From the NCBI GenBank assembly GCA_965645245.1, contig OZ287072.1, forward strand, positions 930,001 to 994,000: a stretch of DNA of 64,000 nucleotides, read 5' to 3'. Below the pieces are notes generated by a model. The model searched no databases, was not told the DNA's origin, and saw nothing but the letters and a program-made list of their open reading frames with translations. This DNA is from Massalongia carnosa. Lineage: Eukaryota. Below, in pieces: positions 48,852 to 56,146 of the stretch; position 1 is the stretch's first letter; every line of letters starts with the position of its first letter. Both the position numbers and the translations under genes were made by a program.

Positions 48852-49276
48852 CACGAGGGTGAAAAAAAAAAACCGGAACACCAAATTTCTTTATACAATC
48901 ACACAAACATGACTACACAACGTTTAAACACACCGATTTTGGAGTCGCATGAAACACTACTTCAACTGTGCATCTTCTCCTGATTTGTCTCCTATCGAGA
49001 ACTGCTGGCAGCTACCGAAACAGCATATTCGTAAATATCCTCATTGGGACGATGTTACTACTAAGGGGTTGATTTTCGAAGGCTGGAATCACGTTTCACA
49101 GATATATATCAACGAAAAGATGATTGAAATGCCTGATCGTCTTCGAGTAGTGATAGCAGGTGAAGGAAAAATGACAGATTATTAATGAGGTTCAATCGCA
49201 TGTATAATGAATTAAATCATCTTTGTATAATTAGTAGTAAATTTGATGAGGGAATGCGGGTACGATTTTGGTGTCC
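48852..49276 (+). mobile_element. Internally deleted remnant of a Tc1-like element related to 53819-55145
   Basis: 48949-49185 encodes HYFNCASSPDLSPIENCWQLPKQHIRKYPHWDD...GKMTDY, homologous to the C-terminus of the intact transposase. Begins with TIR-like CACGAGGGTGA; only a partial right-end match (TTTGGTGTCC). Confidence 0.8.
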
Positions 49277-49566
49277 TTAGGTCCTGAGTCTATGTACCTT
49301 CGCAAAACATGCATCCAAAAGATAAAAGTAAAAGTACATATCTAGGAATTAGGCCAAAACATCTTTACAATCCTCCATATAAAGAGGAAAGTAGCAAGTT
49401 CAGCTTATCGAGACACCATCCCTCCACCGTATTTTCCCTTATAAACGTACGACAATCATATACCATGGCACACCATTTGCAATGCATGCTGGCGTCAATA
49501 TACCGTGTAGAAAGACTTAGCCATCTCCCTTTCCCGCTTCCATCGTCCAATTGACTGGACCTGCTC

Positions 49567-50924: not shown

Positions 50925-52680
50925 TCACGCTCGGGGGATTTGGTTCAGGTATTGCTGCAAGCCAAGAGCAGCTGGGTTATATTAGTCATACTTAATCCAA
51001 TAGGAGTTTATGACTTACCCAGAACGACGACTGTATATCTAGTCAGCCCACCTAGGAAACTCCCAGCGCCGAAAGTCAGAATATATGTTATGAAACTAAA
51101 TTTCACCCTTCCTTCCCGATCGAAATTTGGCTTCAGCTCACTCATCTTGCGATACTTGGCAAGCTTCCCTTCATAGGGTGGATATCTTATGTTGAGAAGG
51201 CTCTCCACCCACCCAGGAGTATTGGTGATGGACCTTCGATGCGAGAAGCAATCGAAGCTAGCTCTGCCCCTATAACTGCCCTGGCCAGAATCTCCCACGC
51301 CACCAAAAGCAAGTGTAGGAATTGAGCCATGAAGGAATGCATCATTTACGGAAGCACCGCCCGATGGTAACTCTTGCAGAATTCTATCGGTCTCCTTCTT
51401 GGTACCAAATGGGTACAATCCAAGTGGCGTTCTATGAACTTGACCAACAATGCGAATGGCCTCGTCCAAGTCGTTAACAGGAAATATGGGCATAAGAGGT
51501 CCAAAGGTTTCCTCCATGACTAGGCTGTCGTGGTAGTCGTTAACCTGTATTAGTGTTGGTGCTATAAACTTCTCACTCTCATCCATATCACCACCTATCA
51601 AAACTGTTCCATTACTCCCATCAAGCAACTGCTTCAACCTAGCCCATTGTTTATTATTTATTATACGACCATAATCCGGGGAAGCCTCGGCGCCGTATGG
51701 AAAAAATTCCTTCATCGCAATCTTCATTTCAGCAACAAACGCGGGCAGTATCTCTTTGTCAACTAATGTGTAGTTTTGCGATATACAAACTTGCCCTGCA
51801 TTCAAAGTTTTGCCCCATAAGAGTCGTCTCGCGGCCAAGCGCACGTTTGCATTCTTAGTCACAATAGCCGGATTGCGGCCTCCCAATTCCAAAGTCACAG
51901 GGGTGAGGGTCTCCGCAGCTTTCTTAGCAATTATTGTGCCTGCCGTGGCACTCCCTGTATAGAATATTTTATCCCACTTTTGATCCAGAAGAGCTGTCGT
52001 TTCGGGAATGGCCCCTTGAACAATACCATAGCAGCTTGGGTCTAGGCTTGATTCTATTATTCGATGCATCACAACCGCCACCGCGGGAGCGTTCTCACTA
52101 GGTTTCAGTATTGCGGTGTTCCCGGCTGCAATCGCGCCAATCAAAGGACCAAAGGATAGTTGCAGCGGAAAGTTATAAGCTCTTTAAGAATATCAGCTGC
52201 ACTCTCGCAATTCCTACGCTCTTAAATTCGTAAGATCTAAACATACCCGATAACAAGAACGCAACCGAGAGGATCCTTGCGAATCTTGGGGGTGAGGATT
52301 GCGTTGGTGAATGGAATATCCGGAGCTTTCTCATCTTTCACCCATTTTGGAAGATTCTTGCAGACGAAAATGATGTCGTTAGTACACCAATCGATTTCTG
52401 TTAAGGAAGCCTCAAAGCGGCTTTTGTGTAAATCTCGTTGAAATGCTTCCACTAATGCCTCTTCATGGTCCTTGATACTAGTAGGCATTTATTCGTTAGT
52501 TTTTAGAGACGAGGTGGTTTGATTCCTGCAGAGGACTTACGCCCAGTATAATTTCCGCAATTGAACGAGCCTAAACTCAAGTGGCTTCGTCTTTTGCGAT
52601 TTGAATGTTGCATGAAGGCGACGGACTATACTAGTTATGGAGTCTATGGGCGTATACGTTAGATCAGGAATGATAGCCAT
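50925..52680 (-). CDS. Class-3 (fatty/apocarotenal-type) aldehyde dehydrogenase, HFD1/CarD-like
   Basis: AYNFP, LKPSE, FYTGS, TLELGGRNP, NAGQVC, EETFGP, FGGVGDSGQG and a C-terminal hydrophobic anchor. Three introns. Confidence 0.92.
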
Positions 52681-53818
52681 TACTATACTCTGTAATCGTA
52701 TTTTGTTTGACAGAGGTCAGTGGCAGAGTGGTTATGTAAAATAATCTAGAAAGTTCGCAGGGATCGGCTTCGGGACAACGTTGCCCTAGTAGGTGGAAAG
52801 AAGGTTAACTAGTGATCTCTGGCTGTACATAGTAATCTGTGTAAGACTCTAGAGTAACCGAGTTTCAGATTCTAAATTCAGAACCATGTGAGAGATGATA
52901 GAAGAGATTGATCTATTGAAAATTAGCAATTATTTCAACCGGTGATCAGTGTCTGGACGCCATTATTCCGTGCACTAACGTGGTAACAGTCAGCGCACTG
53001 AATATCACTGGTTTGAATTTAAATAATTGAACAATCCGCTTGGGTGACTAAGTTAGCTGAATGTCTTAATGAACATTGCACTACTCTCCCATGGGAAGAC
53101 ATTATCTGGCATATTCTGGTACACGATGCTTGCGCTTTTACTCGAGAGCCCCAAGGAAACAAAACTTCCTTGATGCTTCTTAGTAGTATTTGCTCTTCAC
53201 AAATACCCCAAATCATTGTCGCTACTACCTTCCTTCAAAAGGGATAGAAATTGAGGAACATGTACCATACATTTACTGCCCCAGAGAGCCTAAGTTCTTC
53301 CCGTTTGTGCTTGAATACTAAGGTAGAGATCTCGAACGAAATCGACCTTTGATGTTGGCCAGATGAGCTCATGCATGTACCTTTTCGATGTAGAACATAA
53401 ATACCATCGCTAGATAAACTGGCAAGGTAGTAGGATATTGATAGTTCCTCAAGCAAAATACTCAAATATGAACATAGAAAACAGGGTTCCGACTAAGTAT
53501 TATTCGGAAATAACCCACACGATACAGAGAATGTAACTTCTTGAAGGTGAAGCACAGCGGAAATCCTGTTCACCGATCGAAGGCTCTTGCTTTTTCTTCT
53601 TTTCTATTTGGAAAAAATAAAGTGTACAAAATAAGATTCAAAAGTAAGCTACAGCGAGAGCAGTCTTCTTGCCTGCTGATAATATTTCATGCAATAAAAT
53701 CAGGATTATATCTCGAAAAATAAACTTCCAGGAGCGATGTTTCTAACCATTATGCTTAGGACCGTGAAGCAACATTCCTAGGTGTTGAGGCAATTTATAT
53801 TCGACTCTAATGAGCAGT

Positions 53819-55145
53819 CACGCGGGTGACAAAATAAATTGCAACGTGTAAGCGAATTTACCCCTGAATGCCCCATCAAAACACCCTCCTTTTTTTCAAC
53901 TTTTTATCTCATCATCAATGTCTCGACCCAAAAAGCCTCATTATGATACTCCCACAAAGGCCAAAGTTCAAGGAGCTTATCAATTTCTCATCTCACATGC
54001 AATTCCATTCGATCCACGGGCCATTTTTCAGGAATTTGGCGTGGCCGAGCGCGCGGGCTATAACATCATCAAAAGCGGAGCTTCTTCTCGCACACGTCAC
54101 AATTCTTCTCTCGTTGAGACTCGGGGTCGAAAGCGAAAGATTAGTGATGATCAGCTGAAGGAGGCAGATCACATTCTGCAGGATCAAGATCTACAATTGG
54201 AAGGAAAACGCTACATATGGGATGCTTTAGCACAGGAGATTGGGGCCGACGTGATGGGACGTACAATGAAGAGAAATCTTACAGCTGCCTTGAATTATCA
54301 CAAATTTCTAGCCTGTGTCAAAGGGTGGCTGGCAATGGCATCAGAAGAAAGAAGAGAAGAATTTGCTACAGTTATGTTAAATAAATATCCTCGGTCCGAA
54401 GACTGGCATCGCATACGATTCAGCGATGAGATTCATTTTGGCTACCGGCCTGAAGGACAGTTACGAATCATTCGTAAGCCCGGAACAAGATATCGTTGGG
54501 ATTGTATTCAGCATCGTGATGCACCACCTGAGAAAGATCGTAAAAGAAAGCACTGCTGGGCAGCAGTTGGTTACAATTTCAAGTCGGATATCTACTTCTA
54601 CGATGTGCCCAGCAATAGCAATGGAAAAATGACTCATCAGGTGTATATTGACGCTATTCTTGATCCCGTCGTCAAGCCCTGGTTGGAGCGTGGAGATGAC
54701 TTCGTACTTGAAGAAGATGGAGACTCTGGTCATGGCACGGGCAAGAGACGAAACGCGGTCAAAAAGTGGAAGTTAGATCACGATTTAGAGCACTATTTCA
54801 ATTGTTCTTCATCTCCTGATCTAGCTCCCATTGAAAATTGCTGGCAGCCCGCAAAGCAGCATGTTCGTAAATTTCCTCATTGGGACGATGCAAGTTTGGA
54901 GCAGCTGATTAGGGAGGGATGGGCTCGAGTCAGTCAGGAATTTATCAATGAAAGGGTGTTATCCATGCCCAAAAGATTGAAAGAGGTGAAAGATGCAAAG
55001 GGGGCGATGACTGGTTATTGATCTCATGTAATTTAGATGAATCTTATCAGCTATGCAGATGATGGTTGATGATGAGATGAAAATTTGAATAAAAAAGGGG
55101 GGGTAAATTCGCTTACACGTTGCAATTTATTTTGTCACCCGCGTG
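53819..55145 (+). mobile_element. Intact Tc1/IS630-superfamily DNA transposon, 1327 bp, 46-bp perfect TIRs, 5-bp flanking direct repeat
   Basis: TIR CACGCGGGTGACAAAATAAATTGCAACGTGTAAGCGAATTTACCCC at 53819-53864 and its exact reverse complement at 55100-55145. GCAGT at 53814-53818 and 55146-55150. Confidence 0.95.
53918..55021 (+). CDS. DDE transposase, Tc1-like (DD38E)
   Basis: Uninterrupted 367 aa with RGRKRKI linker, WHRIRFSDE, LEEDGDSGHG, SPDLAPIENCW and SMPKRL. 38 residues lie between the second D and the E. Confidence 0.93.
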   Translation: MSRPKKPHYDTPTKAKVQGAYQFLISHAIPFDPRAIFQEFGVAERAGYNIIKSGASSRTRHNSSLVETRGRKRKISDDQLKEADHILQDQDLQLEGKRYIWDALAQEIGADVMGRTMKRNLTAALNYHKFLACVKGWLAMASEERREEFATVMLNKYPRSEDWHRIRFSDEIHFGYRPEGQLRIIRKPGTRYRWDCIQHRDAPPEKDRKRKHCWAAVGYNFKSDIYFYDVPSNSNGKMTHQVYIDAILDPVVKPWLERGDDFVLEEDGDSGHGTGKRRNAVKKWKLDHDLEHYFNCSSSPDLAPIENCWQPAKQHVRKFPHWDDASLEQLIREGWARVSQEFINERVLSMPKRLKEVKDAKGAMTGY

Positions 55146-55325
55146 GCAGTGTAGGTTGCGGGTTTATGATATTCCGAAGCGGGGTTGAGAAAGGTGAAGA
55201 TGAGATCACATACCTAAGAAGGATCAATCCACCCTGCTAACTCTAAGGGATTTTCATTATCTTTGTTCTGTGACTCCTCGTTCTTTGCTGATGATTCTGA
55301 GTGTAACACTGTAAAAAGGTCAAGA

Positions 55326-56146
55326 ATGGCCTGGAGGTCGTCGGGGTATAGCAATGCAGCTCTTATTGCTAATCTGGCTAGCAATGGGCTCATCAATTCC
55401 GATAGAGTCAAACATGCCATGCTCAATGTATGGGCTCCTGCTCCCCACAACTTCGACTTCAGTGCTTGATCTAAGGCAATTCCTTCTTAACATGTTCTAA
55501 AACAGGTAGATCGCGGACACTACGCTCCTGTAGCTCCGTACGAAGACTCTCCACAGATGATTGGATTTCATGCTAGGATTTCTGCACCGCATATGCATGC
55601 CTCAGCAGCGGAGTCGCTTCTTCAGTTTCTCTATCCTGGTGCTCAAGTTCTGGATGTTGGCTCAGGCTCGGGCTATCTTACACACGTTCTAGCTAATTTA
55701 GTGGGCGCTGATGGAAGGGTTACTGGCGTGGATCATATACAAGGACTGGTGGATTTGTCCATCAGCAATATGAGGAAAAGCGCGGAAGGAAAAGAAATGC
55801 TAAGAAGTGGGCAGGTAGCTTTCGTCAAAGCGGATGGTAGGAAAGGATGGAAGAATGATGCACCATATGATGCTATTCATGTTGGTGCCGCGGCAGTGGA
55901 GACCCATGCTCCATTAATTGAACAGCTGAAAGCCCCAGGCAGGTAAGTAGAGACCCATGAAGAATAGACAATCAATGCACTCAACTACAGGAGCTAATCC
56001 TGATGCATTGTAGAATGTTTATACCTGTGGGAGATGCGTATGAACAGTACATTTGGGTCATAGATAAGAAAGAAGATGGAAGTATTGAGAGAAAGAAATC
56101 ATTTGGAGTCCGATATGTACCGTTGACGGACGCGCCGGAGCACTGA
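55326..56146 (+). CDS. PCMT: Protein-L-isoaspartate O-methyltransferase
   Basis: [75 protein letters not shown]. Two introns. Confidence 0.95.

Follow-up and report, generated by a model that had tools for sequence, protein, structure and literature searches.

Can a transposon that resembles Tc1 in its transposase and in its ends duplicate five bases of its target in place of the dinucleotide TA? The question is raised by a 1,327-bp element in Massalongia carnosa (assembly GCA_965645245.1, contig OZ287072.1), located in a stretch of 64,000 nucleotides, positions 930,001 to 994,000 of the forward strand, which is called the window and from whose first letter all coordinates are counted. The element is very probably an autonomous cut-and-paste transposon of the Tc1 branch, recently mobile, and belongs to a family in ascomycetes that generates variable 5-bp target-site duplications (TSDs) throughout. 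A sequence-only reading of the window had proposed a fungal IS630-Tc1-mariner lineage with altered target recognition, five bases being duplicated instead of TA, and this proposal is supported by an empty site in a near-identical genome (run X1) and by the flanks of relatives. The host is probably a lichen-associated ascomycete.

Structure of the element in the window

The element is delimited by two perfect terminal inverted repeats (TIRs), outside which the same pentamer stands on either side, and it encloses a single transposase gene:

53819..55145, plus strand: whole transposon, 1,327 bp, with bounds given by the TIRs
53819..53864, plus strand: left TIR, 46 nt, beginning CACGCGGGTG, 100% complementary to the right arm
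55100..55145, minus strand: right TIR, 46 nt, pair of the left TIR
53814..53818, no strand: left copy of the 5-bp TSD, GCAGT, present as a single copy in the empty-site contig of run X1
55146..55150, no strand: right copy of the 5-bp TSD, GCAGT, abutting the right TIR
53918..55021, plus strand: transposase gene, 367 aa, uninterrupted, a single open reading frame (ORF) with a DDE_3 match
within 53918..55021, plus strand: catalytic triad D170 (FSDE), D267 (EEDGDSGHG) and E306 (SPDLAPIE), from motifs and alignment
53890..53918, plus strand: inner imperfect inverted repeat, left arm, 29 nt, 90%, from inverted-repeat pairing
55066..55094, minus strand: inner imperfect inverted repeat, right arm, from inverted-repeat pairing

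With 1,327 bp, one gene of 367 aa and perfect TIRs, the element has the dimensions of the Tc1 family, whose members measure 1.3–2.4 kb and carry TIRs and one transposase gene of about 340 aa. The TIR starts with CACGCGGGTGACAAAATAA, and its first 28 nt occur in the window at the two element ends only, where 100 shuffles lead to an expectation of 0. The bases outside the two arms are non-complementary; hence, the inverted repeat is not extendable outward. Both junctions of the element were read, and neither carries a TA. Direct reading of the sequence thereby confirms the perfect 46-bp TIRs, the GCAGT on both sides and the missing TA that the earlier reading had described. For a 5-nt match at a fixed position the chance probability is 1/1024, in agreement with its estimate of about 1/1000, and chance is excluded by the empty site and the relatives.

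The inner inverted pair is unequally spaced from the TIRs, at 25 nt on the left and 5 nt on the right. From its sequence, this pair may be a candidate subterminal binding site of the transposase, which could make the two ends non-equivalent.

Empty site and other copies

Seven public runs contain parts of the stretch, and four of them were aligned to 53000–56000; in runs X5 and X7, only parts of the stretch are covered. In X1, labelled as a lichen metagenome, a contig of 27,266 nt matches 53000–53813 with six differences and then 55146–56000 with two differences, both flanks being 99% identical to the window, and the joint 53813→55146 contains no extra letters. At this joint, 1,332 bases are passed over and five bases can be assigned to either side, leaving GCAGT once. 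Since 1,332 equals the 1,327-bp element plus one pentamer, the near-identical genome of X1 has an unoccupied site with a single GCAGT, precisely the empty-site allele that had been suggested as a check of the 5-bp duplication.

In the case of X7, which carries a different organism label, a contig of 5,428 nt aligns from exactly 53819 and is preceded by an unrelated upstream flank ending in CTTGC. The right side of this copy diverges at 55092, and the right flank of the pair is unreadable. In X4, 820 contig pieces match the stretch, with a likeness of 99% or more for 479 of them, and the unique flank contigs reach 28 nt (left) and 26 nt (right) into the element. An 81-nt internal contig of the element has a depth of 25,000, compared with 854 and 793 for the flank contigs; as depth is not copy number, these ratios are a hint of multi-copy status only. 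In addition, a cluster of 98%-identical proteins has 43 member sequences. These observations point to many near-identical copies within the presumed source species, and the empty site shows polymorphism between near-identical genomes. From its intactness, the insertion polymorphism and the near-identical copies, the element is recently mobile and probably still active.

Generality of the 5-bp duplication among relatives

A word-indexed search yields 257 transposase homologs at E ≤ 0.001. Only about one quarter of the proteins carry names, and the named sources are all Ascomycota (Clathrospora, Bimuria, Botrytis, Rutstroemia, Pseudogymnoascus, Colletotrichum, and Macroventuria), with none from Fusarium among them. 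With a profile built from 40 sequences, 459 representatives are recovered at E ≤ 1e-30 out of 1.84 billion; at 50% identity, the family amounts to several hundred protein clusters. Scanning of metagenome contigs gives 359 confirmed stretches, of which the best 80 were fetched with 1.5-kb flanks; their amino acid identity to the transposase is 34–60%. By blastn of the element, the TIRs of the window are found in none of these 80 loci, the similarity being limited to the coding region at 64–78%, with one 36-nt stretch at 92%. As no TIR is shared at the DNA level, the 80 loci represent other, independent sub-families.

The best inverted repeat around the gene was determined by script for each locus and the flanks were then compared, the boundary being movable inward by 0–2 nt for duplication ends that happen to be complementary. 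When a TIR score of 20 or more is required, together with 20 nt or more of flank on each side, 39 loci remain, the window among them, and these reduce to 32 non-redundant insertions (31 metagenome relatives and the window). The longest exact flank repeats of these 32 insertions are:

0 nt in 7 insertions, 1 nt in 3, 2 nt in 2, and 3 nt in 1
5 nt in 16 insertions, 6 nt in 1, and 7 nt in 2

Hence, 19 of the 32 insertions have a flank repeat of at least 5 nt, compared with 1.5% of 992 mismatched left/right flank pairs, and TA stands on both sides in 0 of the 32. Among the 17 sites with an exact pentamer, 15 different sequences are represented, which is the variability expected of other copies if the earlier proposal were right. 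The element starts are of the types CACGCGG-, CAAGCGG-, CAAGCTG-, CTCGCGG- and CTCC-, and one of the 17 exact-pentamer sites (L076) belongs to a 571-bp deletion derivative.

A tree was computed from the best single tblastn segment of each locus that spans at least query residues 40–340, giving 39 distinct rows of 40 from the 80 loci and the window. Seven rows with an exact 5-bp TSD are spread over at least five subclades in this tree, which has no outgroup and from which no direction of change is claimed; most loci of the CAAGCGG type are excluded by the span rule. Judged from the flanks, the 5-bp duplication characterizes the ascomycete family as a whole and is not peculiar to the window copy.

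Two observations stand apart from these counts. L027, on a marine scaffold, was considered as a TA-flanked relative and rejected; its termini, CAC(A/G)CGCTAG, lie further out with unmatched flanks and, with the ends reread, it counts neither as TA-flanked nor as carrying a TSD. In L004 and L006, an insertion with an ACCCC duplication lies inside another inverted pair of 44 nt and 95% (1260–1303 / 2678–2721), and is probably nested in a small foldback element or one resembling a miniature inverted-repeat transposable element.

Transposase and its relation to Tc1

The 367-aa protein matches Pfam DDE_3 (PF13358) at E 5.4e-10, with 39.7 bits against a cut-off of 28.6. The ORF translation contains FSDE, EEDGDSGHG and SPDLAPIE without interruption and with 38 residues from the D of EED to the E of PIE, exactly as described by the sequence-only reading. 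In the 40-sequence alignment, D267 and E306 are invariant, and D170, R69, G70 and R71 are conserved at 90% or more. The family profile matches the catalytic domain of Sleeping Beauty SB100X at E 1.9e-18 and Mos1 at E 0.14, and its alignment pairs EDgDsgH with HDNDPKH of Sleeping Beauty and SPDLAPIEN with SPDLNPIEN. The NCBIfam IS630 model scores 55.7 bits, below its cut-off of 100.

A structure model built on the alignment has a predicted local distance difference test (pLDDT) score of 78.7. Its top match in Foldseek is 5cr4, the Sleeping Beauty catalytic domain (E 1.4e-10, 28% identity), followed by full-length Mos1 complexes, with which it aligns over about 375 columns, but with a high root-mean-square deviation. 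Retroviral integrases and the IstA and TnsB transposases are also returned, at E 3e-3 to 1e-2. The predicted model contains two three-helix bundles (helices 13–51 and 77–125) that precede the catalytic domain and flank the conserved R69-G70-R71, the RGRKRK motif being placed between these two helical DNA-binding subdomains. No helix-turn-helix (HTH) family of Pfam matches this protein at E ≤ 0.1; PF01498, the Tc3-type HTH, is present in many relatives and Atlas clusters, where it is combined with PF13358. Compared with Sleeping Beauty, the D-to-E segment is 3–4 residues longer, all of them directly after the D-x-D-x-x-H motif, and this extra-length stretch (residues 271–280) is modelled with low confidence (mean pLDDT 60).

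By sequence, predicted fold and anatomy, the element is of the Tc1 type, and it departs from that type in the TA target only. As insertion at TA is lacking, it is filed as a variant and not as a canonical member.

The label DD38E, which the sequence-only reading had attached to the transposon, is true of this copy, but it does not define the family. The spacing was counted in 266 stored proteins (P0001–P0266), 156 of which, mostly fragments, lack one motif. Among the 110 with both motifs, it is 37 in 55, 38 in 35 and another value in 20, within a range of 34–46; DD38E was therefore rejected as a family marker. Naming Tc1 families by the D-to-E spacing would split one natural group.

Target-site bias

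The composition of the target was computed over the 17 exact-pentamer sites (loci from L003 to L076 and 53804–55160 of the window), oriented by the transposase gene, a small and mixed sample. At the second position of the duplication, C is present in 14 of 17 sites (Bonferroni 1.6e-5), and at the first position in 12. Beyond the end of the duplication, the third base is A in 13 sites (Bonferroni 4e-4) and the second is T in 11; two bases ahead of the duplication stands A, likewise in 11. As read from these sites, the target is neither TA nor random, and its pattern is oriented and non-palindromic. A palindromic consensus, TA-S-[SCWGS]-S-TA, was rejected, the per-site complementarity being 7, 4, 2, 7 and 5 of 17 at distances 1–5. 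For an element with identical ends, an oriented bias is unexpected.

Proposed mechanism

In classical Tc1/mariner elements, the two target strands are joined with a 2-bp stagger at TA. The transposase of the present family would combine two helix-turn-helix subdomains, a basic RGR linker and an RNase-H-like DDE domain. Acting presumably as a dimer, it would bind the 46-bp TIRs and excise the element, and the 3'-OH ends would be joined to the two target strands at positions 5 nt apart; gap repair would then duplicate five bases of variable sequence. Such strand transfer with a 5-bp stagger is what we infer from the established chemistry of DDE transposases. The stagger might be set by the basic expansion of 3–4 residues after the second Asp motif (EDGDSGH-GTGKRR, compared with DNDPKH-T in Sleeping Beauty). 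The replacement of P-K in Sleeping Beauty by S-G may also contribute to the new geometry; these two residues lie in the motif after the second Asp and, in Sleeping Beauty numbering, are P247 and K248, positions reported to be implicated in target choice.

Points against a family-wide 5-bp duplication and alternative explanations

Several observations weigh against a uniform 5-bp duplication by a currently active element. Thirteen of the 32 insertions lack an exact flank repeat of at least five bases. Inspected by eye, L009 has CCTGC on both sides only if two mismatches in the terminal TIR are allowed, the flanks of L013 (GCAGT left, ACAGT right) and of L062 agree at four of five positions, one terminus is lost in L005 and L017, and the pentamer is shifted by 2–3 nt in L015 and L031. 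Furthermore, L001, L023, L025, L030, L041 and L049 show no flank repeat of any kind; on our assumption, these six may be old copies or chimeric metagenome assemblies. L035 (661–2031) has a 7-nt repeat, CCCAGGT, and L024 (1334–2718) a 6-nt repeat, GCCGCC, suggesting that the stagger may not be strictly 5 and may differ or vary in some sub-families; the other two members of the L035 sub-family with both flanks, L030 and L049, show no repeat. The sub-family of the window element supplies one full TSD, that of the window, and one extra left flank only. The probable activity is deduced from intactness, insertion polymorphism and near-identical copies, and not from an observed transposition event. 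The empty site in X1 could in principle result from precise excision instead of being a never-occupied allele, and the duplication is of 5 bp in both cases. The link of the loop expansion or the S-G replacement to the stagger is speculation from the sequence.

Three explanations would remove the 5-bp duplication or the Tc1 assignment itself. The GCAGT pentamers might be a chance match, the true duplication being TA or none, as one element with one 5-nt match (1/1024) is weak alone, and TA dinucleotides stand close by, 4 nt before the left pentamer and 1 nt after the right one. This is very improbable, since the X1 contig lacks exactly the element and one pentamer, the relatives exceed the control of mismatched flanks without a single case of TA on both sides, and termini placed at the nearby TAs would be unequal and non-complementary. 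If GCAGT belonged invariably to the element itself, or marked a strictly sequence-specific insertion site, this would fit the flanks of L013 and the composition bias of the target sites, and the X4 contig of the right flank, starting 26 nt inside the element, might hint at a copy sharing GCAG if a k-mer of 31 is assumed. Such constancy is nevertheless highly unlikely: one GCAGT is left at the X1 empty site, CTTGC stands before the same first base in X7, and 15 pentamers occur among 17 duplications in the family, findings that also dispose of the outcome named beforehand as fatal to the proposal. A different superfamily that is only superficially Tc1-like could account for the duplication length, as Transib and Ginger2/TDD normally make duplications of 4–5 bp, and for the Foldseek matches to retroviral integrases, IstA and TnsB. 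The probability of this is very small, because Sleeping Beauty and Mos1 are by far the best matches in sequence and fold, the Tc1 motifs align, the domain is Pfam DDE_3 with the Tc3-type HTH PF01498 in relatives, and the size, single ORF and CA-starting TIRs are Tc1-like.

A fourth explanation accepts the biology, but holds that the family and its 5-bp TSD are already catalogued, for example as Mariner/Tc1 elements in Repbase or Dfam. It is a serious possibility, though it falls short of being probable. Members of the family are numerous and are present in well-studied genera (Botrytis, Colletotrichum, Pseudogymnoascus, Clathrospora, and Bimuria); given its 459 representatives at E ≤ 1e-30, the family has probably come to the notice of repeat curators. 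A literature search that included TIR motifs, with Repbase, Dfam and subscription journals outside its range, found no Tc1-like family with a 5-bp TSD. Meanwhile, a review and the family papers still give TA as the target of the superfamily; Sagan is described as keeping the TA duplication, and the DD37E survey records no member in Dikarya among 437 fungal genomes. The remark in the sequence-only reading that no described family was known therefore holds for the literature searched, and cataloguing elsewhere is quite conceivable. Returning to the Tc1 branch with a 5-bp duplication, its fullest version is an undescribed, ascomycete-wide branch that has abandoned TA for a 5-bp geometry and an oriented CC...TA target, with the window copy as a candidate for an active tool; this combination is possible, with a likelihood slightly below one half.

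Comparison with known elements

The impala/mimp elements of Fusarium oxysporum, which are Tc1-like, resemble the present family in being fungal and small, with a single ORF and TIRs that start from CA and contain a GGG-N-GCAA-A/T-rich core. Impala is reported to duplicate TA (Langin et al. 1995). The sequence of the relative L009 is CACGCGGGTGCAATAA, and that of the window element is CACGCGGGTGACAAAATAA. L009 shares the core GGGTGCAATAA with mimp, but has CACGC where mimp has CAGT, so that at most one base is added ahead of the GGG core. The TIR of the window does not match the impala/mimp pattern CAGTGGG.GCAA[TA]AA, and only the core resembles it. This published search pattern begins with CAGT; impala itself is listed among DD34E/Tc1 elements. 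Since the published patterns begin in this way, CA is an ordinary element start, and the idea of the sequence-only reading that the CA...TG termini reflect a shifted cleavage register is left unsupported.

Sleeping Beauty/Tc1 (DD34E) is the best match in sequence and fold, and shares the architecture and the aligned D-x-D-x-x-H and SPDL-x-PIEN motifs. The target of these elements is TA with a 2-bp TSD and their spacing is 34, compared with 5 bp, a spacing of 37–38 and S-G for P-K here. According to a review, the target of Tc1/mariner is any TA dinucleotide, and the family papers describe TA duplications.

Intruder (DD38E/IT) agrees with the window element in its size class and in the 38 residues from D to E. 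Its description reports animals only in a TBLASTN survey that included fungi, and gives TA duplications for Tc1/mariner. The TA duplication is absent here, and the present family is set apart from Intruder by description. As the spacing varies in the present family, with 37 the commonest, the shared value of 38 is coincidental. Sagan is likewise a fungal branch of the same superfamily; it is described as a divergent fungal and protist branch of Mariner/Tc1/IS630 that has a TA duplication and, from the second D to the E, a long insertion, whereas here the D-to-E segment has 38 residues, only 3–4 of them extra, and the duplication is of 5 bp. For DD37E/TRT, a TA duplication is reported, and the fungal members, renamed Tc1, are placed only in Mucoromycotina; the present family, in ascomycetes with 5-bp duplications, is set apart from it by description. 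The Trem elements of Paracoccidioides are pogo-like with a DDD triad, and six of eight families have TA.

With respect to stagger, the present elements differ from phage Mu, Tn7 and the retroviral integrases in belonging to different families, matched by Foldseek only at E 3e-3 or worse, and in having CA...TG ends as Tc1 does. Those DDE enzymes have a stagger of 4–6 bp and a loose target consensus, and the ends of their elements are TG...CA. A precedent for a changed stagger is provided by Tc4/Tc5 of C. elegans, which duplicate TNA, and TBE1 of Oxytricha, which duplicates ANT; these belong to other sub-groups and hosts, are much larger elements, and duplicate 3 bp and not 5.

Genomic surroundings

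The element lies between two predicted genes:

51008..52183, minus strand: aldehyde dehydrogenase ORF, Pfam Aldedh E 2e-62, on one side of the element
55263..55946, plus strand: protein-L-isoaspartate O-methyltransferase gene (narrower bounds 55491..55943), Pfam PCMT E 6e-47, on the other side of the element
48852..49279 (end approximate), plus strand: remnant of a second element

The distance from the element to the likely start codon of the methyltransferase (about 55326) is approximately 176 nt, and as the site is empty in the near-identical genome of X1, the insertion is a promoter-region polymorphism. The remnant has a TIR-like left end, CACGAGGGTGAAAAAAAAAAACCGG, at 48852 with the flank CCTGG before it. 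It encodes the last 78 aa of a transposase (48949–49182), with 60% amino acid identity to the intact copy and 72% to P0015, and keeps part of the inner right repeat, while the outer right end is missing. From these sequence features, it is an internally deleted and truncated copy of another, related sub-family.

Significance

The TA target with its 2-bp duplication is treated in the literature as the defining hallmark of Tc1/mariner. It is built into classifiers of transposable elements, and it also enters the structural model for target capture that was developed from Mos1 and Sleeping Beauty. With a large clade of the same fold and a 5-bp stagger, automated annotation will misplace ends or misclassify elements. 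The stagger would be evolvable on this scaffold, and impala or Sleeping Beauty together with this family would form a closely comparable pair for mapping the responsible residues. As an autonomous element of 1.3 kb with near-identical copies and insertion polymorphism, the transposon is a candidate for a TA-independent insertional mutagen. If the reading as an undescribed branch is true, the window copy would offer a compact tool with a transposase of 367 aa and a natural experiment on what sets the stagger of DDE enzymes. In addition, the element, being multi-copy and polymorphic between near-identical genomes, bears on the genome dynamics of lichen fungi.

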